In this document: piece by piece, positions 19,282 through 30,018 of the stretch | Numbering within the stretch: position 1 is the stretch's first letter | How the letters are laid out: every line of letters begins with the position of its first letter | Origin: a virus | Reading direction: 5' to 3' (one strand) | DNA length: 64,000 bases | IMG/VR virus record: IMGVR_UViG_3300012147_000006 | Location: 64,001 to 128,000 of that record | Notes under the pieces: generated by a model | Databases searched by the model: none | What the model was told of the DNA's origin: nothing | Seen by the model: the letters and a program-made list of their open reading frames with translations, nothing else | Program-made: the position numbers and the translations under genes

Positions 19282-19422
19282 ATGAGCAAAGATATTAAAG
19301 CACCAAAGTTTGAAGTCATTCAATTGACGCAAGGTGAGATACAAGATGCAATGAAGCATAGCGTACACAAGTCTAAGAAGACGTACACACGAAAGGCAAA
19401 GCACAAAGGTAAGAGGTACTAA
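19282..19422 (+). CDS. Small basic protein with ArfA-like tail (46 aa)
   Basis: Read manually: MSKDIKAPK...VHKSKKTYTRKAKHKGKRY*; follows the promoter at 19228. Confidence 0.7.
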   Translation: MSKDIKAPKFEVIQLTQGEIQDAMKHSVHKSKKTYTRKAKHKGKRY

Positions 19423-20223
19423 CCCCCTACCCTGTTTAAGCCCCTTACAGATAGGCTCTTATTTAAGGGGTCTATTTAAGGCTCGGAAGGAAAATAAGCC
19501 CCTAAAAAAGCCGCCCCTCCATAGGGGGTCCAAGACCTCTCACGAATTTTTCCCCATTTTTTTTACAATATTCTCAACCAACGTATATTCCCTATCATAC
19601 GCATTGTTGCTCCAGGTTTATTATTATTTTTCTCAACCAATCCCGTCAAGGACAAAATGTCCTATAGAATGTCTTTGAGAATTGTGAATATAAGCTATAT
19701 TGCTTATAAAGGACAATATAAGCTCCTGGGCTTATAATACGTTCGGAATGACCATCGGAATTTTCTTAATACTTATTTGCCGCATCCTTTACTGCGATTA
19801 GGATAGCTAACTGCCGTAACGTTCGGAATAAATAGTTCTTTCATCATGACGAGGAAAAGTTTTCTCTTTGTTAATAAGTCAATCCTTAAAAATTTTTTCC
19901 CAAATTTTTTAAGCTAATTTCTGGACCAATTACGCTCGGAATGACCATCGGAATCTCTCTGAGAAAAAACCTCTACACAACACTGATAGCAAAGCTTTAA
20001 CGAGCGGAATGACCATCGGAATTATTTGCCGCATAAAGCGCTGCGATTAGGTGTTCTATTTGCCGCACTCAAAGATATTGTTCATTCGTCATGACGAACA
20101 AGAAACTTTCTCTGGGGGGTAGGGGGTCCGTATAAGGGGGTGCCCCTTTTTCCTATGGACTTACAAAAAGTGAATCCTTAAAAATTTTTTCCCAAATTTT
20201 TTATTGTAAATTTTGGGAACAAG
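19423..20223. repeat. Non-coding region with nested direct repeats (candidate origin or terminus)
   Basis: CGGAATGACCATCGGAAT x3 (19744, 19937, 20005), TATTTGCCGCA x3 (19774, 20023, 20057), CTGCGATTAGG x2, AATCCTTAAAAATTTTTTCCCAAATTTTT x2 (19881, 20173); no ORF of 60 aa or more. Confidence 0.8.
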
Positions 20224-20392
20224 TTAACAGTGGTCTTTGAATAGTTTCTTCATTCTATGTATGTGAGAAATGACAAGACACTTATATGCAAGGTGCAGCA
20301 ACGAAGTTTCTGATAGGCCCATCTTTTTTCTCTTCAAATGTTCGAGTATATTCTTCGTACTTAAATTCCCAGAGTTCTATATCTTCATTCAT
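20224..20392 (-). pseudogene. Frameshifted member of the [DK][HY]C-tail family
   Basis: MNEDIELWEFKYEEY.. continues in a shifted frame as MGLSETSLLHLAYKCL..RMKKLFKDHC*; aligns with 20392..20580. Confidence 0.6.
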
Positions 20393-20580
20393 TAGCAGTA
20401 ATCTTGTATTATTTTTTCACGCCTACACCTGACAGCCAAATCCAGGAAACGATAAGCTCTAACGAGTTCATGAGTACCTGTGCTGAGGCCCCAGAAATGG
20501 ACTTCAGTTTCATAATCTCCTATTGATTGGTTGCACCTGGTTTCCCACTTAATTATTTCTTCTCTTGTAATCTTACTCAC
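20392..20580 (-). CDS. Small protein, [DK][HY]C-tail family
   Basis: Ends REKIIQDYC. Confidence 0.75.
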   Translation of the reverse strand: MSKITREEIIKWETRCNQSIGDYETEVHFWGLSTGTHELVRAYRFLDLAVRCRREKIIQDYC

Positions 20581-20758
20581 AGTGTTTTCTATATATTTTA
20601 TGGTAATGCAATTTAATAATCCAATAGTGAGACTCCTCTTGTTTGTCTTCTCCCATGATTCTTAAATTACTTTCCATTAGATTCAACAATTGCTCCAGCG
20701 TCAAACCTTGTTGCTTGAGAACTCCATTGACTTCTTCTTTTGTTAGGTTATTTATCAC
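20573..20758 (-). CDS. Small protein, [DK][HY]C-tail family
   Basis: Ends KIYRKHCE. Confidence 0.75.
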   Translation of the reverse strand: MINNLTKEEVNGVLKQQGLTLEQLLNLMESNLRIMGEDKQEESHYWIIKLHYHKIYRKHCE

Positions 20759-20987
20759 AATGCTTCAATTTAATTAACATCATCCTATATTCAATTGAAT
20801 TTGTTACACAGAAGAGTGCGGTTTCTTCCCACCCTCTCTTGGAGCCAAGTCTATTCTGAACTGAACCGTCACTTCTAATGTGACTTACATATCCGCAATC
20901 CATAGCCTTGCAGTACTTAACATAATCAAGGTCATAAATTTTGGTCCTATATTCCAATTCGTTTATATCATTTCTAAAATCATCCAC
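20748..20987 (-). CDS. Small protein, [DK][HY]C-tail family
   Basis: Ends RMMLIKLKHCDK. Confidence 0.75.
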   Translation of the reverse strand: MDDFRNDINELEYRTKIYDLDYVKYCKAMDCGYVSHIRSDGSVQNRLGSKRGWEETALFCVTNSIEYRMMLIKLKHCDK

Positions 20988-21186
20988 AGTGGTCTTGTTT
21001 TATTTTTATCATTCTAAGTTGTATTACCTTAAATATTGAAAACACTGACATTTCAGCACATTCTTCATATGACATTTCAATGGTATTATCGTAGAGATTG
21101 TCTAAATATTCTTGATGGACGGTTTCCCAGTTAATAATTTGGTTCTCGGTGACCTTGCCTCCCCTCCTTCTTCTAATATTCGCCAT
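20980..21186 (-). CDS. Small protein, [DK][HY]C-tail family
   Basis: Ends RMIKIKQDHCG. Confidence 0.75.
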   Translation of the reverse strand: MANIRRRRGGKVTENQIINWETVHQEYLDNLYDNTIEMSYEECAEMSVFSIFKVIQLRMIKIKQDHCG

Positions 21187-21430
21187 GGTCTCTAAGTATC
21201 TTTTTCATCCTGTAGTAAATTGATTTCATAAGTGCGTCACATGCTCTCCCAAGAGATAACATGGAGTCTTTGTTGCATTCATAATTAATGTCGTAGTGAC
21301 GAATGTTGTCCTCCAGGGAAAAAGTCTGTTCTATGATTTTTTCAGTAGAAGTAACTTGGAAGTTTAAATATATAAGTTCTCCTTTTGGAGTTATAATCCC
21401 TGGCGGTATAAATTCTTTTCCTTTATGCAC
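21173..21430 (-). CDS. Small protein, [DK][HY]C-tail family (variant)
   Basis: Ends RMKKILRDHGEY. Confidence 0.7.
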   Translation of the reverse strand: MHKGKEFIPPGIITPKGELIYLNFQVTSTEKIIEQTFSLEDNIRHYDINYECNKDSMLSLGRACDALMKSIYYRMKKILRDHGEY

Positions 21431-21713
21431 AGTGTTTTTTTAAAATTAATAAATTCATGTAATACAAATATTTCTCCAGGTGATACATGGTAAACTCATC
21501 TTTATACTCTCCTTGTTTAAAGTAAGCATCTGAATATCTCTTATGAGATTCAACATTATTCTCAATGCTATCCTTGGTATCAATAAAAATGTCCCTCATA
21601 TGAATGGGTGGCATTCTAAGCGATTTCCTCAAACTTGCAAGAAACCGTTCCATATCCTCATCGCTAACTGTATTTGGATACACGACAAACGTTCTTTTAT
21701 TATCCTTACTCAC
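21423..21713 (-). CDS. Small protein, [DK][HY]C-tail family
   Basis: Ends LLILKKHCA. Confidence 0.75.
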   Translation of the reverse strand: MSKDNKRTFVVYPNTVSDEDMERFLASLRKSLRMPPIHMRDIFIDTKDSIENNVESHKRYSDAYFKQGEYKDEFTMYHLEKYLYYMNLLILKKHCA

Positions 21714-21801
21714 AATGCTTCTCTTTTATGTTATAGTGCATTAGGTGGATGCATTTCTTGGGCTTGAACTCGTTGGGGTCATATATATTCTGTTCACTCA
21801 C
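21706..21801 (-). CDS. 31-aa peptide, [DK][HY]C-tail family
   Basis: Read manually from GTG: MSEQNIYD...YNIKEKHCE*; fills the gap with the same 8-nt overlaps as its neighbours. Confidence 0.55.
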   Translation of the reverse strand: MSEQNIYDPNEFKPKKCIHLMHYNIKEKHCE

Positions 21802-22132
21802 AGTAGTCCTTTCTTATTTTCTTCTCCATCACAGTCAAGAGGTTTGCCAGAATATCTTTCCTAAGAAAGTCTGGAATATCTGTATCAAGCATTGACTTCA
21901 TCTTCTCTACTCTTCCCTCCAGAGAAAGAGTGCTAAGTTCAATTGTTTTTGTTTTAGCTATTTCCTTATCAATTTCTTTTTTAAGAATGCTTGTGAGAGC
22001 TGCTTCTATGTCAATGCCATACAGTTCCAACAGCTCTCTTGTTTCTTGTGAAACAGGCTTAATTGAGAACTCGGTGCCATGGAATTCATAGGTGTATTCT
22101 TCTGTTGGCAATTTTATCTCTTCTTTTGTCAT
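21794..22132 (-). CDS. Small protein, [DK][HY]C-tail family
   Basis: Ends EKKIRKDYCE. Confidence 0.75.
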   Translation of the reverse strand: MTKEEIKLPTEEYTYEFHGTEFSIKPVSQETRELLELYGIDIEAALTSILKKEIDKEIAKTKTIELSTLSLEGRVEKMKSMLDTDIPDFLRKDILANLLTVMEKKIRKDYCE

Positions 22133-22395
22133 TAGCAGTGGTCTATTTTTATTTTCTTCATCATAACTCCTATTATTGTATCGAGCGTCAATAATTTTTC
22201 TGTAATTGTTCGCTCATGCGTAATTCTCTCCTTAAGATTTGTTAGCTGCGTGCTTATGCTAATTGTTGAAAGTCCTGCTATTTGCATCATCTCATTGAAT
22301 GCTTCGGCTCCCATATTTTCTCCGTCAACCACAAATCCCACAATATTGGTACCAGTCTGGTTCCAGACAATCTCTGTTTTATTCGATTCGTTCAT
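22132..22395 (-). CDS. Small protein, [DK][HY]C-tail family
   Basis: Ends MMKKIKIDHC; first gene of the operon. Confidence 0.75.
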   Translation of the reverse strand: MNESNKTEIVWNQTGTNIVGFVVDGENMGAEAFNEMMQIAGLSTISISTQLTNLKERITHERTITEKLLTLDTIIGVMMKKIKIDHC

Positions 22396-22400
22396 GTGCT

Positions 22401-22430
22401 CAAAGTTATGAAAAAATGGTCAATTTTCAA
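22401..22430 (-). promoter_or_regulatory. Bacteroidota primary-sigma (-33/-7) promoter
   Basis: TTG-N19-TAACTTTG; similar elements at 25903-25933, 29905-29935 and 47898-47928 (N20). Confidence 0.75.
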
Positions 22431-22482
22431 AAAGAATGTATATTTATTAAATATAACAAAACAACACAAAAACAAAACAATT

Positions 22483-22704
22483 ATGGCATTACCAGGAGTA
22501 TCATTTAAGGAATTCGTAAAGAATCCGATAGTGGCATTACTCTTCATGTCCCTAATGGCGGTGGGTTACCTTTATTACGATAATAAGAGTACCTTAACGT
22601 CACAAGTGGAGACATTGCAAGAGGACATTAAAACCCTCAAAGAGGATTACAAAGAATTAAACGAGAAGTTCATTGAGTCACTCAAAGAGCTTCACAATCA
22701 CTAA
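22483..22704 (+). CDS. Small membrane protein with coiled coil
   Basis: Start corrected to MALPGV; one hydrophobic helix; TATTTAT motif at 22441. Confidence 0.7.
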   Translation: MALPGVSFKEFVKNPIVALLFMSLMAVGYLYYDNKSTLTSQVETLQEDIKTLKEDYKELNEKFIESLKELHNH

Positions 22705-22709
22705 AAAAT

Positions 22710-23270
22710 ATGAAAAAAGAATATAAGAAAGCTATATTAATAGCGGTATCAGGATTGGCGCTGATGTTCATGGTTAAAATGTGCAAGTCAGAAGATTTCA
22801 CAAAGATTTACCAGAAGGATAAGGAGGATATAAAAAAGTTAGGAGAGTTGCAGCACGAGAGCGACAGCTTGCTAACAGAGATGCTTCATGACCTTGATAC
22901 CAGGAGAAATATGTACAGCAGTGAGATTGACAGCTTGAACAACATCGTCCTAAACGATAACCTTACAGTAGAAGAGGTTGAGAAACTTAAAAAGAAAGTG
23001 AAAGATGCGCAGAAGCTATTGAAGGATGCTCAAGATGCCAAGGGTGTTATTATAATTGACGCTGGCATGACGATTAGCGAAATAGTTCTTGACTCAATTA
23101 TTTACAACTATATTTACAAAGATTCTGTACAGTGGAATATTGTTGAGAAAGACTCTATTGTATACAACATAGTCCACAAAGACACTGTGATTGACAGGAA
23201 AGTTTATAAAATAGACACTGTTTACTATGACGGTGATGACGTTAAGAAGCTGAAGCTTAAAAACGATTAA
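22710..23270 (+). CDS. Membrane-anchored coiled-coil protein
   Basis: N-terminal hydrophobic segment, coiled coil, repeated D(S/T)-hydrophobic motifs. Confidence 0.7.
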   Translation: MKKEYKKAILIAVSGLALMFMVKMCKSEDFTKIYQKDKEDIKKLGELQHESDSLLTEMLHDLDTRRNMYSSEIDSLNNIVLNDNLTVEEVEKLKKKVKDAQKLLKDAQDAKGVIIIDAGMTISEIVLDSIIYNYIYKDSVQWNIVEKDSIVYNIVHKDTVIDRKVYKIDTVYYDGDDVKKLKLKND

Positions 23271-23330
23271 GAGGTCAAAAAATTTTTACGTAAAAACGGT
23301 CATTCTAAATTTAGAGTGACTTTTTTTATT

Positions 23331-23753
23331 TTAGACCTTTGACATTACCCAGCTGCTATTTTCCCATTTGCCAGCGCCATAATATTTAACATTACCACCA
23401 CACTTAGGGCAAGGATTGTGAGCCCACATATCACTTTGCATTCCTATCGCTTCGCAGTTACCGCATCTGTTGACTTTTGTAAATGTTCCTCTATAGTATG
23501 TGATGCCAGGTTTAACATGCTCAACTTTCTTCTTTGGTGGAGTTGGCATTGTGCCTTCTTTAATTATCCTTGATGGTGGCGGAGGTGGTGGAGCAACTCT
23601 ACCTTTGATTACCTTTTTGATTGCACCTCCTTCATCACGAATAAATTCATTAATGTTAAACTTGGGTTCTTCCTTAATTTTTTCTCTGGCTTTAATCTTG
23701 GCAATAGCCTTAGACTTAATTCCGATTATGTATCCAATTGCAAATGCAATCAC
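23331..23753 (-). CDS. Hypothetical protein with poly-Pro tract and Zn ribbon
   Basis: PPPPPP; CGNC..CPKC. Confidence 0.65.
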   Translation of the reverse strand: MIAFAIGYIIGIKSKAIAKIKAREKIKEEPKFNINEFIRDEGGAIKKVIKGRVAPPPPPPSRIIKEGTMPTPPKKKVEHVKPGITYYRGTFTKVNRCGNCEAIGMQSDMWAHNPCPKCGGNVKYYGAGKWENSSWVMSKV

Positions 23754-23772
23754 TGCTATAAAAAATATCCCA

Positions 23773-24009
23773 TTATTTAAAGTCTATGTGAAATGTAACA
23801 TCTGTTGTATCGTTGTTATGCATTTCGTAAATATAAGTTGTATCTCCTTCTGCGGAAATCTCAAGTGTTGGCTCCATTGGACTGTCGAGTCTTGTTGATA
23901 GCTTGGTTACGTGTATTGCGTTAATTACGATTACCAGAAGTATCATCCCAAGGATTCCTGGGAGTATCTTTAGAAAGTAATCTAAAAAGCTATTGTGTGG
24001 TTCTTTCAT
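23773..24009 (-). CDS. Small membrane protein
   Basis: One TM helix. Confidence 0.65.
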   Translation of the reverse strand: MKEPHNSFLDYFLKILPGILGMILLVIVINAIHVTKLSTRLDSPMEPTLEISAEGDTTYIYEMHNNDTTDVTFHIDFK

Positions 24010-24533
24010 ATATTAATTGGCGCTTTGGTGCTGTTTACAATCTCCTGGAGCCACGTTCTCTTCTCTTCGGCAATATCTCTTAGATTTTTCATAACGATGT
24101 CTGTAAGGACTTCTTTTTTGATTCTCTCGTAGAAGTTTTTCCCCTCTACATTATCCCAAGCTTTCTTTTCATCATCACGAAGTTTAGCGGCTCTATCGTA
24201 TTCTTGGGCTACTATCATTTCGCCTTTCTCCTCTTTGATTCTGATGAGTTCAGCAATACCGCAATCTTTAGATATTTCTTGATACTTTTCATTAGCAACG
24301 CTCTTCACTTCTTCAGATAAACCTCCTGCTCCGAATCTTTTAGTCAATTTTTCACCAGACACAAGTTGAATTGTGAATTGTACGTGAACGGTTTTCTTTT
24401 TTGGATTGATGATGTCTTTTGTTATATCTAAAAAAGATTTTGTCTCCAATTCTGGAATATACTCCTCCAATTCTGAAATCGTCTCAATGTATTCAGCTGT
24501 AAATATTTTATCATCTAATCTTAGTGTTGTCAT
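24006..24533 (-). CDS. UVR (UvrB/UvrC) motif protein
   Basis: QEYDRAAKLRDDEK. Confidence 0.7.
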   Translation of the reverse strand: MTTLRLDDKIFTAEYIETISELEEYIPELETKSFLDITKDIINPKKKTVHVQFTIQLVSGEKLTKRFGAGGLSEEVKSVANEKYQEISKDCGIAELIRIKEEKGEMIVAQEYDRAAKLRDDEKKAWDNVEGKNFYERIKKEVLTDIVMKNLRDIAEEKRTWLQEIVNSTKAPINI

Positions 24534-24862
24534 TATATTTTATTTAAAGTATCTGTAACAATGTCAAGCGCTGCAGGGCGAGTGCTTCCTTTTCTGTCAA
24601 GGTCTCCTTCTGTGATTCCTTTTCCCTTGTATTTTTCGAACAAAGCAGAGATGTCAGCCATGAAATCTCTGAAGTGAATGTTTACCTCTGTAATACTTTC
24701 TGACTCAACATAGAATCTAAGTTCGTAATTGCTTTCAGTGATGCCGTAGCCGTTTTTAATTCTAAGAATGGCAGCGTCAACCTGTTCAGCATCTTGGTAT
24801 TCCAGGAGCCTTTTATATTCACGATGTTCTCTGGTTTTCTCCAAAAATTCTTCTTCGTTCAT
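24533..24862 (-). CDS. Hypothetical protein
   Basis: ORF with TAATG coupling. Confidence 0.75.
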   Translation of the reverse strand: MNEEEFLEKTREHREYKRLLEYQDAEQVDAAILRIKNGYGITESNYELRFYVESESITEVNIHFRDFMADISALFEKYKGKGITEGDLDRKGSTRPAALDIVTDTLNKI

Positions 24863-24863
24863 C

Positions 24864-25116
24864 TTAGTATTTTTTAATCATTGGATGCTCAATTACTTTG
24901 ACAAATTCTTTCTTTGTCAAGTATATGGATTCGATTATTTTTGTCGAGGAGGGCAGATTTATCTGTATCAGTGTATTCATATAAGACAGAGCCTCCGCCA
25001 CAACCGCCAACTTCGTATCTATAACTACGCCATCCAAAGAAAGTTTTCCTCTGGATGGTGTAATCATGTTTTTCTCCATGTTGGACGAATCTTATATTTA
25101 AGACAAGTCTTCCCAC
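24864..25116 (-). CDS. Hypothetical protein with apparent 1-nt frameshift
   Basis: MGRLVL..LLDK joins IIESIYLTKK..KKY* if one A is removed from the A run near 24940. Confidence 0.5.
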
Positions 25117-25872
25117 TTAGAAGTGTATTTTACCAGTTCTTGTGTGGAAGTTGTATAGCTTAACAAGCTCATTGACCATGTCTCCAACTTTAGATTGTTC
25201 ACGAACGATACCTGAGTTAAGTTTAAGCTTGGTAGTCATTTTCTCATGAACATAGTTAGGGTGCATATAAAGTTTAAGCATTGCCTTAACAAACTTTTCT
25301 TTCTTAGCGAAATCATAGTAATTTTCGAAGATAGCCATGTGAGTAAAGAAATCGTCAATGTCGATGTCTTCTCTAAATTCGAAAGAACCTTGTTTAATGT
25401 TGTGTGAGTGAGAACGTGCGTTCTTTGAGATTTTACCGAATGCACCAACTACAGAAATTCTCTGGTCGTATTTAGCACAAAGGTCTAAAAGCATGATGTA
25501 AGAGTCTTTCCCTCTCTTAGCATAGTGACGAGCATAATCCATAGCGTTCCAGTTCTTAGCAGCTCTGTTGATGTCTGCAGCAGCATAGATATGAATATCT
25601 TCTGATACGATGAAATGAATTGGAAGGCCAAGCTCTTTACATGCAAGGTATCTGTTTTGTCCATCGACAATCTCCATTTGCTTGTTAACAAGGATTGGTT
25701 GATATTGAGTATAATCGTTTGCTTCGATTGACTCTTTAACTTTTTTGTAGTGAGACGGGTCTCTGTTGAATTCGCTTAGTACGAACTTTTCATACTGTGT
25801 AGAAATCCAGATTTTAATGTCGGACATCTTTGCGAATGCTGCATCTTGTGCAGTATCATTTTTCGTTTCCAT
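25117..25872 (-). CDS. ParB/Srx N-terminal domain protein
   Basis: PILVN..EIVDGQNRYLACKELG motif. Confidence 0.8.
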   Translation of the reverse strand: METKNDTAQDAAFAKMSDIKIWISTQYEKFVLSEFNRDPSHYKKVKESIEANDYTQYQPILVNKQMEIVDGQNRYLACKELGLPIHFIVSEDIHIYAAADINRAAKNWNAMDYARHYAKRGKDSYIMLLDLCAKYDQRISVVGAFGKISKNARSHSHNIKQGSFEFREDIDIDDFFTHMAIFENYYDFAKKEKFVKAMLKLYMHPNYVHEKMTTKLKLNSGIVREQSKVGDMVNELVKLYNFHTRTGKIHF

Positions 25873-25936
25873 AAATTTTTGTTTTGTAATTAAATTAGAC
25901 TACAAATCTATAGAAACTTTTTAACCCTTGCAAATT

Positions 25937-26146
25937 TTAAATGCAATATTTGCTCATTATTAGCTGAATTTGTCTATCTATAAGGTATTTTTGAGCCTTT
26001 ATTCTTATTAGATTGAGCGATTGATATTCGTCAGTCTCATAAAAGTCAACAATATTTTCGAGGTACCTCTCAATATCTCGTTCGGCTGCTCCAACTATGT
26101 AGTATATTTCTCCGTTGTGGATAAAACACGCATCTTCCTTGCTCAT
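25937..26146 (-). CDS. Small protein, [DK][HY]C-tail family
   Basis: Ends QLIMSKYCI. Confidence 0.65.
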   Translation of the reverse strand: MSKEDACFIHNGEIYYIVGAAERDIERYLENIVDFYETDEYQSLNLIRIKAQKYLIDRQIQLIMSKYCI

Positions 26147-26297
26147 CTATTTGCTTATTATAAGTCTTAATAATAAATATACAATAAATAAGAAGAAATT
26201 TAATTAGAATATTTTTAAATTTAATTAATGGTGAAAAAATTTTGTCGGAATCCGCCTGTCGGCAATGACTGTGCGATGAAAAAATTGTATTATTTTT

Positions 26298-26627
26298 TTA
26301 TAGAAATTTCTTTAAAAAACAAATTCTTTCCTGCTCTAACTTAATGCCTCTTTCTTTAGAGTCAATATATTTTTGAATATCTTCTTTGCTTATTTCTTGA
26401 AAACACGGGTAGTTTTGATTTTTCACCAGTTTCATTTCACGTTCTAATTCTCCTAAGTTGTGTTTAGAACTATTTGTGAAGTTAGTTAACTTGCATAGAT
26501 AAACGCCAGAAAACTTTCCTGGATAGGATTCTATCAATTCACCAGTGTCCTTAATGAATTCTACAATGAAGTCGCCCATTTGGTAAAACTTACTTGGTTC
26601 AAGTTCTTTTCCGCTAAAGTGCTTCAT
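26298..26627 (-). CDS. Hypothetical protein
   Basis: ORF in operon. Confidence 0.7.
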   Translation of the reverse strand: MKHFSGKELEPSKFYQMGDFIVEFIKDTGELIESYPGKFSGVYLCKLTNFTNSSKHNLGELEREMKLVKNQNYPCFQEISKEDIQKYIDSKERGIKLEQERICFLKKFL

Positions 26628-26629
26628 AA

Positions 26630-27079
26630 TTAATCCATTCCATCTACATCATCTTGAGTAATCTCAAGACAATCAAATTTATCCATGCAATCCTCAAGAA
26701 TTACATGCAAGAAAGAGCTGTTGTTTCTTGGAGACAAACCTCTTAACATGGTGTGTCCATTCTTGTTTTTGTACTTCCACACTGGGATGTTCCACTTCTT
26801 ATAACCTGCATCATCATTTTTTGCCCAGCTATCATCATAAGTTTCGAACATATCAATTCTAAGATTTTTGTCTCCGCCAAATCCTGCTCCAAGTCTATTG
26901 AATCCTTTCGGCATTCCAAGAAAAAACTTACCTATGCCAACTGCTGCAGTTCCAGCTCTGTGATTTCCACAAGCTGAACTTAATCCTTCGTCATCTTTCT
27001 TGAAGCATGTAATGTCGCTTCCAGCCATGCATCCTGGGCACTGGTATTCTTCGATTGCGTCTTTAACGTTATCTTTCAT
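26630..27079 (-). CDS. Hypothetical protein (Cys-rich N-terminus)
   Basis: Start corrected to MKDNVK; CPGC..C..C. Confidence 0.75.
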   Translation of the reverse strand: MKDNVKDAIEEYQCPGCMAGSDITCFKKDDEGLSSACGNHRAGTAAVGIGKFFLGMPKGFNRLGAGFGGDKNLRIDMFETYDDSWAKNDDAGYKKWNIPVWKYKNKNGHTMLRGLSPRNNSSFLHVILEDCMDKFDCLEITQDDVDGMD

Positions 27080-27081
27080 GT

Positions 27082-27384
27082 TTAGTGTTCTAAAAATTCG
27101 TAAACTTCTGTGACTGTATCCCAAACGTCTTGGCCAATAACTTCACAGTATTGTTCGTGAGTAAACCCAAGTTGCTTAAGGATTTCGTTTTGAATGTCAG
27201 TGCTTACTTCAGACTCAGCTTCTCCACGACCAGTTTCTCGATAAGCATCTTGCTCGTCTTCATACTCGTCTTCCCAATCTTCATCAAGATAATTATAGAT
27301 TGCCTCTTCAACTAAATGCTGAAGGACACTTTCTTCATATTCTTTTCTCAAAAATTCGATTACTGATTCTTTAGTAGCTTCCAT
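27082..27384 (-). CDS. Highly acidic hypothetical protein
   Basis: ORF after the class II promoter at 27395. Confidence 0.75.
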   Translation of the reverse strand: MEATKESVIEFLRKEYEESVLQHLVEEAIYNYLDEDWEDEYEDEQDAYRETGRGEAESEVSTDIQNEILKQLGFTHEQYCEVIGQDVWDTVTEVYEFLEH

Positions 27385-27394
27385 ACTTAGGTTA

Positions 27395-27420
27395 TACGAT
27401 AAATAAAAGAAAGTGTTCTA
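27395..27420 (-). promoter_or_regulatory. Class II ECF-type promoter
   Basis: TAGAAC-N16-CGTA; also at 31260-31285, 37153-37178, and as TGAAAC at 44625-44650 and 45853-45878. Confidence 0.75.
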
Positions 27421-27430
27421 TTTATCTCGA

Positions 27431-27898
27431 CTAAGCTGTTTGTTTCCACTTGGTTGGAAACTTATAATCTTTTAAAAGCTCAAAAGCTTTCTCTGGAGTT
27501 ATATAGCCATCAATTTTAACAAAGAACTCTCTCCAGTTCTCATCAGACTTTGCTCTCTTAGCGTTTTTAGCCTTCTCTTTCTTCTTCTTTTCTTCATCAA
27601 GAGAGACTACTGAAAATCCATCACCCATTTCTTCATCACAGACAGATTGGTCTTTTCTGTAAGAACTCCCATCAACTTCAAATCTAAAACCATCTATTGT
27701 AGTGTGGTATGTGCATGTGATATAGCACGAGCCTGTAGTCTCGTCATAGTCATCATAACTTTCTCTTAGGCATTCTACTACCTCCTCGATAGTCATTTCT
27801 TCGCCCTCACCTTCTTCCTCTTGAAAGTATTCTGCAAACACTTTCTTAAGAACTACCATTACATCACTTGGGATGTCTTCTATTTTATCAATATACAT
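27431..27898 (-). CDS. Hypothetical protein
   Basis: ORF. Confidence 0.75.
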   Translation of the reverse strand: MYIDKIEDIPSDVMVVLKKVFAEYFQEEEGEGEEMTIEEVVECLRESYDDYDETTGSCYITCTYHTTIDGFRFEVDGSSYRKDQSVCDEEMGDGFSVVSLDEEKKKKEKAKNAKRAKSDENWREFFVKIDGYITPEKAFELLKDYKFPTKWKQTA

Positions 27899-27912
27899 AA
27901 TTATTTATTTTT

Positions 27913-28164
27913 TTATGAGTCCATTACGTGGTCTGAACATAAGTTATAGTCAACGCAATCTTGGTTAGTTGTATCAACGGGTTGTCCGCAATAACATTTC
28001 TTTGGAACTTCTGAAGCTGGAACTGCGTCCAGGTGCTCCATTAGTTTTTCTTTAAATTTTCTATATCCGTCAGCATTCTCAAACCCTTCTTCGTCCAAGC
28101 AGATACCTATTCCATAAAGGAAATCGTCTATGATTGTTTTCACGCTATATTTCTTGTGACCCAT
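27913..28164 (-). CDS. Hypothetical protein with C-terminal Cys/His cluster
   Basis: CYCG..C...LCSDH. Confidence 0.65.
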   Translation of the reverse strand: MGHKKYSVKTIIDDFLYGIGICLDEEGFENADGYRKFKEKLMEHLDAVPASEVPKKCYCGQPVDTTNQDCVDYNLCSDHVMDS

Positions 28165-28207
28165 CTGGCCATCATAAGTGTTAACGTATTTCTTAAATTT
28201 TTATAAG

Positions 28208-28414
28208 TCAAAATTCTCCATCATCAAGTATATCTTTGTTGCTAACTTTTTCTTTTTCCCACCCCATTAATAATCGACCTATAATTGACACAACAAAACC
28301 TGCAGGTACAAGTGTGTATTTTAAGTCTGGCCTTCCAGTCATCATTGGAATAAACATTACAACGATTCCGATTACATAAAAAAAATATTGAGGCAATTTT
28401 ATAAACCATATCAA
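28208..28414 (-). CDS. Small 2-TM membrane protein
   Basis: Two hydrophobic helices. Confidence 0.7.
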   Translation of the reverse strand: MIWFIKLPQYFFYVIGIVVMFIPMMTGRPDLKYTLVPAGFVVSIIGRLLMGWEKEKVSNKDILDDGEF

Positions 28415-28740
28415 GCTTCTTTTCTTAGTTTTTCAGCAAATTCCTGGAGTTCGTTCCACTCTTTTTCATATACCTCTGGGTCTTCGTTATATTTTTCTTT
28501 TCTATTCTTAAGTCTCCAAGGAGTTATTGAATGCATGGACGTATTGTGGTAATCTAATTCAATTTCTTCAACCGTCTTTAGTATTTCCTCCTTTGTCTTC
28601 GCAAGCCTAAGAGTGAAGTGAATTTGATTCATAGCTGTCTTGGCGGCTTCGTTTTGTTCCTCTATGATTTTTTCAATCTCAACATCAAGTTCTTCAATGC
28701 TTGAGGAGTTGAGCTACTCTAAGTGTTCTTCCCAGTTCAT
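28411..28740 (-). CDS. Hypothetical protein with internal TAG
   Basis: MNWEEHLE-TAG(28714-28716)-LNSSSIEE.. is in frame with 28411..28632. Confidence 0.5.
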
Positions 28741-28741
28741 A

Positions 28742-29038
28742 TTATTGAATTGTAAAATCTACAACTTGTATTTCATCAACAGTGTTGTGCCATCTATTTT
28801 CTCTCTTGTCACATTTTCTCCACTTAAACTCTTCATAGTGCCTTAACATAACTTCATGGTCTTCATCTTCTACTTCAAGTTTTCTATATTCTTCTTGGCG
28901 AGCTATCTCCATTTCAAAAATCCTTGTCGCTTCAGCAACTGCAGCTTCTTTATCTTTGAAGAGGTTTTTGTTGACTCCTCCACCTTCGTAGATGCAGCCT
29001 TGATGTATTCCGTATACAACGTCTTTATCTTCGCTCAT
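28742..29038 (-). CDS. Hypothetical protein
   Basis: ORF. Confidence 0.75.
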   Translation of the reverse strand: MSEDKDVVYGIHQGCIYEGGGVNKNLFKDKEAAVAEATRIFEMEIARQEEYRKLEVEDEDHEVMLRHYEEFKWRKCDKRENRWHNTVDEIQVVDFTIQ

Positions 29039-29286
29039 ATTTACTCGCCATTTTGTTCGTTAATAAACTCTTCTCTAATTGCTACCAAAAGCTCCATTAA
29101 CAATTTATTGGCCTCATCTGCTTTGTCAACCATTCCGAAGCTCATCATTATTTTGATTCTTTCTTCCATTGTGGCAACCTGGAGCACAACTTTTTGCATA
29201 CTTCTCCGACAAGGGCTTGGTGTGCTCGTATGACAATATTTGCATTAATTGTGTTGCTTTTTTCACTGCTCAAATTTAGTTAAAAT

Positions 29287-29517
29287 TTATTTATTTACCA
29301 AATGTATTTTAATGAACCTGGAAATTAACCCTGGAGTTACAGTTGGCATTCCAGTCGGAGGATTAACCCACTCAGGTTCTGAAATATATCTTTTTTCATA
29401 CTTAAGTTTTTTATCCTTCCATATTTTAATAGTTGAAACTCCTTGATAGCCTCTTATTACTGACCACGCCCATAAGTCGCCCCCATCTATCGTTATATTT
29501 CTGTGCTTCTTTTTCAT
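29287..29517 (-). CDS. Hypothetical protein
   Basis: ATGA overlap start MKKKHR. Confidence 0.65.
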   Translation of the reverse strand: MKKKHRNITIDGGDLWAWSVIRGYQGVSTIKIWKDKKLKYEKRYISEPEWVNPPTGMPTVTPGLISRFIKIHLVNK

Positions 29518-29708
29518 ATGCAATGTTTTATAAAAATTTCTCTAAACATTTCGTGGTAATTTCTTTCATACCCTTTAATCAAATAATTTACTTGATAATC
29601 TGAAAGCCCGTTGTTTACTATTATGCGCAAGTCTTTAGATGACAAGTGAACAAATTTCTTGTTTCTGAGATGTTCTGGAAGTCTTCTTATTTTGTCTTCT
29701 TCTAACAT
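29514..29708 (-). CDS. Small protein, [DK][HY]C-tail family
   Basis: Ends EIFIKHCI. Confidence 0.65.
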   Translation of the reverse strand: MLEEDKIRRLPEHLRNKKFVHLSSKDLRIIVNNGLSDYQVNYLIKGYERNYHEMFREIFIKHCI

Positions 29709-29899
29709 TAGCAATATTTTTTTAAGATGTATTTATTTTTCTCCTCAATAGAAAAGATAAGACTTTGCCTTGTCATCCACAAACCTCTTTTTACAAAAGC
29801 TGTATTAGCAAACTTAGGGTCCTTAAGTCTTTCTGTTAAAATTTTATGCAATTGCTCCCCCGCTTTATCCCACTTCATTTTTCTTGCTCTTGTTTTCAT
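29708..29899 (-). CDS. Small protein, [DK][HY]C-tail family
   Basis: Start corrected to MKTRAR, below the host-type promoter; ends KYILKKYC. Confidence 0.65.
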   Translation of the reverse strand: MKTRARKMKWDKAGEQLHKILTERLKDPKFANTAFVKRGLWMTRQSLIFSIEEKNKYILKKYC

Positions 29900-30018
29900 T
29901 GCAGCGAAGGTACGAATAAATGAAAAAATTTCCAAAAATAAAAACTATTTATTAAGACAACACAAAAATAGATGGAGCCTGAAGAAGACTACGATGACTA
30001 TAACTGGTTTAACGAACA

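Follow-up and report, generated by a model that had tools for sequence, protein, structure and literature searches.

The window analysed here is a stretch of 64,000 nucleotides, bases 64001-128000 of the IMG/VR virus record IMGVR_UViG_3300012147_000006, and our subject is a tandem array of very small genes on its minus strand, at window positions 20224-22395. The encoded proteins end in a similar basic tail that usually closes with His-Cys or Tyr-Cys, and their N-terminal parts are diverse. An original prediction, made from the letters alone, had listed thirteen minus-strand open reading frames (ORFs) with such endings, and all thirteen, with the endings described, were confirmed in the window (Table 1). 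The ten at 20224-22395 are coupled in translation, and their products are small proteins of a single family restricted to this lineage. Below we consider how the shared part of these proteins is built and constrained, how the array changes between related phages, and what its members may do.

Genes of the array and their genomic setting

Table 1. Array genes, outlying ORFs and promoter motifs in window coordinates (-, minus strand; aa, amino acids; MCP, major capsid protein)
Feature	Position	Strand	C-terminal ending	Remark
Bacteroidota-type promoter motif (TTTG, spacer, TAACTTTG)	22401..22431	-		ends 5 nt before the first ATG of the array
Member 1, 87 aa	22132..22395	-	KIDHC	cut to 39 aa in relative L013
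Member 2, 112 aa	21794..22132	-	KDYCE	in-frame fusion of two genes seen in L013
MCP E-loop/spine-helix-like piece, residues 32-60 of the 112-aa member	about 21953-22039	-		sequence resemblance
31-aa remnant	21706..21801	-	EKHCE	first 16 residues of a 99-aa gene and tail of a 110-aa gene
Member, 96 aa	21423..21713	-	KKHCA	
Member, 85 aa	21173..21430	-	RDHGEY	without Cys; orthologue in relatives 88 aa
Member, 68 aa	20980..21186	-	KQDHCG	AlphaFold2 model: two-helix hairpin
Member, 79 aa	20748..20987	-	LKHCDK	
Member, 61 aa	20573..20758	-	RKHCE	
Member, 62 aa	20392..20580	-	QDYC	
Last member, frameshifted	20224..20392	-	KDHC	two ORFs: 20282-20392 (5' part), 20224-20337 (3' part)
Outlier, 69 aa	25937..26146	-	SKYCI	terminal motif only; missed by the family profile
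Outlier, 64 aa	29514..29708	-	IKHCI	terminal motif only; coupled to genes on either side
Outlier, 56-63 aa (start uncertain)	29708..29899	-	KKYC	terminal motif only
Bacteroidota-type promoter motif	29933..29966	-		upstream of the 29708 gene; overlaps the TTG called as its start

Nine of the ten consecutive ORFs carry the terminal motif as had been claimed; the gene at 21173-21430 ends in DHGEY and has no cysteine. Members without the cysteine are this one, a second with the ending DHGEE in a relative, and one ending KKKYT. In both RDHGE(E/Y) members (L013:2737-2967 and window 21173-21430) the ATG of the next gene consists of the His codon CAT plus a G, which looks like a second type of junction. 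Of the shortest ORFs, the 31-aa one is a deletion remnant and that at 20224-20337 the 3' part of a frameshifted gene. The frameshift in this last member lies at a run of six A residues (A6, 20324-20329), where relative L013 has A8 and an intact 56-aa gene. The A6 form is not an assembly error, since it recurs in a 99.95% identical strain from another sample (L031).

Three further ORFs with the motif, at 25937, 29514 and 29708, lie outside the array, and it is unlikely that three such endings should occur by chance among about 35 neighbouring genes. The gene at 29708 is the best match of the family profile outside its training set, yet only at an E-value of 0.38. Its true start is probably the downstream ATG, which gives the length in Table 1, because the TTG at 29935 sits inside the -7 box of the promoter motif. 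Host-type promoters had been predicted in front of both groups of genes. Motifs of the form TTTG...TAnnTTTG are indeed present at both places, and such motifs point to a host of the Bacteroidota type; their enrichment in the window is only about twofold.

Relatives of the phage were taken from metagenomes (L002, L010, L011, L012, L013 and L015/L016). Of these, L015 is more distant, with a neighbouring SprT-like protein of 69% identity, yet five members there retain this tail. No family members were found on contigs with only about 40% identical SprT-like genes, and the ParB-like neighbour, used as a query, led only to an unrelated contig from which the family is absent.

The record from which the window was taken has 142,155 bp and is about 65% complete; the G+C content of the window is about 34%. 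Proteins identical to those of the window are also encoded on metagenome contigs of 257 and 364 kb (ENA, JGI), and therefore the phage is probably a jumbo phage and the 142-kb record a fragment of it. Capsid, portal, terminase or other structural genes were not found in this partial genome. It encodes nicotinamide adenine dinucleotide (NAD) salvage genes, a CCA-adding enzyme, a poly(ADP-ribose) polymerase (PARP)-like ADP-ribosyltransferase, amidases and very many small ORFs. A 425-aa protein at L006:7020-8297 (genome 27020-28297, outside the window) has a PARP-type ADP-ribosyltransferase catalytic domain (E 5e-25); it shares the genome with the NAD salvage genes, and a possible link with the cysteine conserved in the array was considered. 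Downstream of the array, some 800 bp (19422-20224) are without a convincing ORF; they contain G/C-rich hairpins, among them a GGGG/CCCC stem at 20134-20148 that resembles a terminator. L013 is homologous only as far as 20225 and has a 131-aa gene there instead, which runs on the other strand. When the array region, including 19422-20224, was scanned for Rfam families and tRNAs, no match was obtained.

The conserved tail and its hairpin

The terminal motif is more frequent than expected by chance, as the original prediction had supposed. Endings of the form [KD][HY]C(x0-2) occur in 15 of the 1586 six-frame ORFs of at least 25 aa in the 142-kb record, against about two expected from the internal frequency of the tripeptides, and 12 of the 15 are the reported ones, all within the 10 kb that hold the array and the outliers. 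Translational coupling alone does not yield the motif, since among the other overlapping or abutting gene pairs the upstream gene ends in [HY]C(x0-2) in only 1 of 63. The sole coupled gene of this kind outside the family, a 209-aa ORF on the plus strand (genome 13884-14513) with the ending ERKYCL, probably has it by chance.

When positions are counted back from the Cys as position 0, the 26 distinct tails have L at -16 (16/26), I at -12 (21/26), M at -9 or -8, an aliphatic residue (I) at -5 and H or Y at -1 (26/26 each), and Cys at 0 (24/26); position -2 is K or D exclusively. The seam formed by positions -16, -12, -8, -5 and -1 has a spacing of three to four residues and is flanked by Lys and Arg. 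The tail Cys is the sole cysteine in 14 of the 24 Cys-bearing members, which excludes an intramolecular disulfide or a multi-Cys metal site for those 14. As to a zinc clasp or other metal site at the His-Cys pair, Tyr takes the place of His in 6 of the 26 tails; a site formed between molecules is conceivable.

The similarity is not confined to the tail. When the last 50 residues, or 18-21 members with those of the relatives among them, are aligned, a weak but consistent similarity over about 50 residues emerges, and the array members are therefore paralogues with variable N-terminal extensions. A first helix begins T/S-x-E-x-I-I-x-aromatic-aromatic-E; after a variable loop, a second begins with a small residue and an aromatic pair. 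The AlphaFold2 model of the 68-aa member, computed with the family alignment, is a two-helix hairpin (helices 14-32 and 40-67; predicted local distance difference test score (pLDDT) 84, predicted template modelling score (pTM) 0.65), in which the tail is integral to helix 2 and packed on helix 1 with pLDDT above 90; a weaker model of like kind was obtained for the 79-aa member. As modelled, the shared tail is thus the last four turns of helix 2 in a two-helix hairpin of about 50 residues. In leave-one-out tests, profiles recovered five core members at E of 0.03 or lower, directly behind the training set, and others weakly. A prediction of a two-copy complex of the 68-aa member scored 0.01, a value that bears neither way on self-association.

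No described family matches, in agreement with the first impression from the sequence: in Pfam and PHROG scans of the members, neither the hairpin nor the tail could be assigned to a family. When 1.84 billion representative proteins were searched exhaustively with a profile, only those of the window and of two close relatives were recovered; word-indexed protein searches with two alignments (A2 and A5) were likewise limited to this phage and close relatives. No matches were obtained in IMG/VR scans with family members or between the hairpin profile and T4-type head modules, and tblastn searches with the 96-, 87- and 79-aa members found nothing meaningful; with the 110-aa member of a relative, tblastn gave matches to DNA polymerase genes (E 0.2-0.3) that we took for noise. 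Foldseek comparison of the hairpin model with PDB and BFVD retrieved only generic helical hairpins, none at E of 0.001 or lower. In the ESM Atlas an LXG match scored 0.83 only and the 68-aa member had no match, both results being within the range of noise. Judged by these searches, the family is a new, orphan one, restricted to this phage and its close relatives.

A reading in line with the original prediction takes the ending for a short detachable tag, serving for docking, lipidation, sorting or degradation, on unrelated effector domains. Such a view has in its favour the strong conservation of the endings behind N-terminal parts that are unlike and may even come from different genes, and also that the three outlying ORFs have only the last six or so residues in common with the array. 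However, the similarity within the array covers about 50 residues, and the tail is modelled with high confidence as part of helix 2; moreover, the search for longer proteins with the module, or for fused forms, found none, although this is weak evidence. For lipidation in particular, a CaaX-type box was looked for and rejected: after the Cys come 0-5 residues (none, E, DK, G, A, I, EVVA or EYVAI), which form no such pattern. An array of precursors of ribosomally synthesised and post-translationally modified peptides was also considered and rejected, as the products are predicted to be folded hairpins and no modifying-enzyme families were seen among the neighbours examined, which were not all scanned. 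The suggestion of a shared C-terminal module on diverse N-termini thus stands so far as the module is constrained as protein, and falls as regards a bare tag of 7-10 residues on unrelated proteins, which we consider unlikely.

The other suspicion, that the conservation resides in the DNA, was checked on synonymous variation, as the original prediction had proposed; the element could be a recombination site, an A-rich context of the start or a junction for reinitiation. Orthologous genes of the window and L013 were partitioned into the last 14 codons through the Cys, the rest of the hairpin, and the N-terminal extension. Synonymous divergence (dS) is similar throughout (0.33, 0.39 and 0.40, respectively), whereas the ratio of non-synonymous to synonymous divergence (dN/dS) is 0.09 in the tail, 0.32 in the rest of the hairpin and 0.44 in the extension; an earlier two-way partition of tail against rest gave p = 0.035 in Fisher's test. 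Because silent changes match those of the surroundings and replacements are almost nil, the tail is under strong purifying selection at the protein level. Among the paralogues, the codons at the conserved C, H/Y and K vary as genome usage does (Cys TGT 7, TGC 5; His CAC 5, CAT 4; Lys AAA or AAG), and the tails of the last and of uncoupled members are retained.

A component at the DNA level exists and is confined to the junction. At six of the nine array junctions the GTG start of the next gene takes its first two bases from the end of the TGT Cys codon and its third from the G that follows, the remaining junctions using TAATG or CATGG; elsewhere GTG is an uncommon start, with 13 cases among 280 crude genes. 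This arrangement determines which base stands third in the Cys codon and influences the residues behind it, hence the frequent Glu-stop after the Cys and the Met-Ser-Lys starts of the next genes. It leaves the Cys itself unexplained: AGT, CGT or GGT would serve equally, and members ending in TGC-TAA are under no such constraint. Modest codon biases in the tail (ATA, GAC) and one gene loss in relatives with its junction inside tail-coding DNA would also suit a nucleotide signal; set against the ordinary dS of the tail, its several-fold lower non-synonymous divergence and the 1 in 63 among other coupled genes, such a signal is most improbable as the sole explanation. The bare tag and the purely nucleotide signal are, accordingly, largely excluded.

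Turnover of the array and pieces of head proteins

Differences between the strains show directly how the array changes. The array of L013 has about 15 members. Compared with it, the window is short of 490 bp, with an 8-bp overlap at the junction; owing to this loss, the 112-aa gene of the window begins with the N-terminus of a 133-aa gene and continues as the C-terminal part of a 142-aa one. It is also short of about 2.04 kb carrying six genes (6-bp junction overlap); here the first 16 codons of a 99-aa gene are joined to the tail of a 110-aa gene, and the result is the 31-aa ORF, whose first 16 residues are the start of a piece resembling the C-terminus of the MCP. Finally, the 68-aa gene is absent from L013, L011 and L002 and present in the more distant L015; in the former three the neighbouring gene, the 88-aa orthologue of the 85-aa member, bears the tail of the 68-aa gene (KQDHCG) in place of DHGEY. 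All three events are in frame and each leaves a tail at the gene end, so that the array changes by in-frame deletions and fusions which keep the tails and the stop/start overlaps. Members truncated or frameshifted in one lineage or another are found as well. At L010:867-1181 the 99-aa gene is chimeric, its own N-terminal half being followed by the C-terminal half of a 63/71-aa gene that ends in KKKYT; this is another in-frame recombinant.

In at least seven members the extension consists, as judged by sequence similarity, of a short piece (17-65 aa) from a T4-type head-morphogenesis protein. The MCP is represented by its N-terminal propeptide (twice), residues 101-117 or so, the E-loop/spine-helix region and the last 37 residues; other pieces resemble the prohead protease, in its N-terminal part, and a protein that occupies the prohead-core position. 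The members concerned belong for the most part to the relatives; in the window they are the 112-aa gene, the 31-aa remnant and also, by way of its orthologue, the 85-aa gene.

First scans of the longer members matched Pfam Gp23 (E 6e-4), the PHROG major head protein (E 1e-3) and the PHROG head maturation protease (E 1e-3). In tblastn and pairwise comparisons the 142-aa member resembles the E-loop/spine-helix region of T4 gp23 and of the MCP of Flavobacterium phage immuto (residues 295-340), and all 18 of its tblastn matches in 50,697 phage genomes lie in gp23 genes; the 112-aa gene of the window has the same piece. The 107-aa member matches the N-terminal part of the prohead protease (residues 6-42 of the member against 24-57 or 50-83 of the protease). 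Of 240 records that match it, the 25 listed have the match in prohead protease/scaffold genes or in unannotated ORFs that occupy the same position. Residues 6-42 of the 99-aa member correspond to the last 37 residues of the MCP (E 2e-4 to 3e-4 in the database, 2e-10 pairwise). Residues 1-60 of the 109-aa member are 45% identical (E 4e-15) to MCP residues 1-60 of an abundant T4-type lineage in IMG/VR, and the 110-aa member has the same N-terminal region. The 88-aa orthologue resembles MCP residues 101-117, and the 133-aa member the protein at the prohead-core position. Pairwise matches to the MCP span 27-65 residues only. Reversed-sequence controls of the head-piece matches gave none, and elsewhere in the 142-kb record head-protein matches are at background (4 real versus 2 reversed among 830 ORFs of at least 40 aa).

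The members were rejected as Gp23 capsid proteins (PF07068), the best score being 19.8 bits against a cut-off of 24.4 and covering profile positions 157-199 of 376, and as prohead core proteases (T4 gp21 type, phrog_207), of which only an N-terminal fragment was matched, without a protease domain. As to the abundant IMG/VR lineage, the N-terminus of its MCP has at least 600 matching stretches in viral contigs, one of them on a 321-kb contig, and its portal gene (L033:2822-5773, 983 aa) has an HNH-like insertion that may be an intein or a homing endonuclease.

The sequence L/I-x-E is the cleavage site of T4-type prohead proteases. In the 109- and 110-aa members of the relatives, the switch from the MCP-like head to the hairpin falls at LSE and LNE, respectively, which align with INE at the end of the propeptide-like match to a related MCP. 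One could imagine internal proteins delivered by the capsid, in the manner of those of T4: the propeptide-like head would bring the protein into the prohead, the protease would cut at L-x-E, and the Cys-ended hairpin would remain within the capsid until its ejection with the DNA. Only these two members, both absent from the window, have a head of this kind; the conserved part of the family is C-terminal and not an N-terminal targeting peptide, and the array lies behind a host-type promoter among small early-type genes. We regard this scheme as quite improbable.

The main rival to a function of the pieces is that they are passengers. On this account only the hairpin would be functional, and the pieces would be leftovers of a decayed duplicate head module, whittled down by in-frame deletions and persisting only because in-frame, tail-ended ORFs preserve translational coupling. 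The deletions and fusions observed between strains agree with this, as do the frameshifted and truncated members and the 31-aa remnant, which has no hairpin and is still in frame and coupled. Moreover, within blocks the pieces stand roughly in the order of a head module (protease, MCP N-terminus, MCP 101-117; separately, MCP middle and C-terminus). In contrast, the MCP-like piece of the 112/142-aa gene keeps the signature residues of the MCP, with a ratio of non-synonymous to synonymous differences (pN/pS) of 0.23-0.53 between lineages; the extensions as a whole have the dN/dS of 0.44 given above; and in two members the match sets in precisely at MCP residue 1 and gives way to the hairpin at the end of the propeptide. 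The passenger account is possible but, to our mind, doubtful.

A proposed role and comparison with known systems

The reading that we prefer, at a probability of roughly 0.55, is that the family combines a constant hairpin handle with variable baits that mimic capsid proteins. With its basic face and its usually single thiol, the hairpin would engage a single partner shared by the members, and the extension would imitate segments of capsid-assembly proteins. The promoter motif in front of the array suggests early expression. The likely arena would be head assembly, either the phage's own or that of a co-infecting rival, or else host immunity that senses short motifs of capsid proteins. We know of no phage-encoded antagonist that consists of MCP fragments.

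Several observations weigh against this proposal. The strongest capsid-like members sit in the relatives and are deleted from this phage, and the extensions of six members of the window (87, 96, 79, 68, 61 and 62 aa) have no detectable similarity to anything. The 31-aa remnant, the frameshifted last gene and the truncated members show that single members are dispensable, and some heads may be passengers. The outliers at 25937, 29514 and 29708 are not recovered by a profile built without them, and the early timing is suggested by nothing but a promoter-like motif.

Defence systems that read short MCP motifs do exist, for example Lit and CapRel (PMC13581612). In a more specific and rather speculative form of the handle-and-bait proposal, which we think unlikely, an early battery of capsid mimics would block sensors of the Lit or CapRel kind or poison the head assembly of a rival, and in-frame fusions would keep making new baits.

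The hyperplastic regions of large phages are filled with arrays of small orphan genes, most of which lack an explanation. The present one offers a sharply defined, protein-constrained module with a single conserved thiol, an unexpected link to capsid-assembly proteins, and a visible mode of evolution, in which in-frame deletions and fusions show how new small proteins arise from pieces of other genes. If the pieces act as baits, they would represent a new class of phage counter-measure or inter-phage weapon and bear on the evasion of capsid-sensing immunity; if they are passengers, the array is still a clear case of gene birth by fragment capture in a phage.

Among known protein families, gp23 (PF07068) and gp21 are the obvious source of comparison, as the members bear stretches of 17-65 residues homologous to defined regions of these proteins; they are fragments only, with neither the HK97 fold nor the protease domain. 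The WXG100/LXG proteins of type VII secretion are also small two-helix hairpins, often tandem paralogues with a functional C-terminal motif, and LXG was the match at 0.83. The array differs from them in the absence of the W-x-G loop motif, of a Pfam match and of a type VII context, and a score of 0.83 is within the range of shuffled proteins; membership was rejected, there being no conserved WxG in the alignments.

The internal proteins of T4 share an N-terminal capsid-targeting peptide of about 10 residues that is removed by the prohead protease, and they are encoded in a hyperplastic locus. By analogy, the array would resemble them in having a short conserved module on diverse small proteins at a locus variable between related phages, and in its link to the head-assembly machinery and to L/I-x-E processing sites. 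The difference would lie in the shared part, which in the array is a C-terminal hairpin of about 50 residues ending in Cys. A capsid-targeting-sequence system of the T4 type was rejected on this ground, and also since a propeptide-like head is present only in the 109- and 110-aa members of relatives.

Modular shuffling in the hyperplastic regions of T4-type phages is reportedly mediated by promoter/stem-loop (PeSL) cassettes, non-coding repeats between genes (PMC2839356, PMC4122927). It has in common with the array that small genes of uncharacterised function are gained, lost or swapped between close relatives, with short repeats at the gene boundaries; in the array, however, it is the coding sequence of the tail that is repeated, neighbouring genes overlap, and the observed events are in-frame fusions.

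With respect to the proposed arena, Lit (with the Gol peptide) and CapRel are the nearest parallels. In both, short capsid segments are the recognised targets (PMC13581612, PMC9712102), which makes fragment mimics plausible; these are host systems, whereas the array is encoded by the phage.

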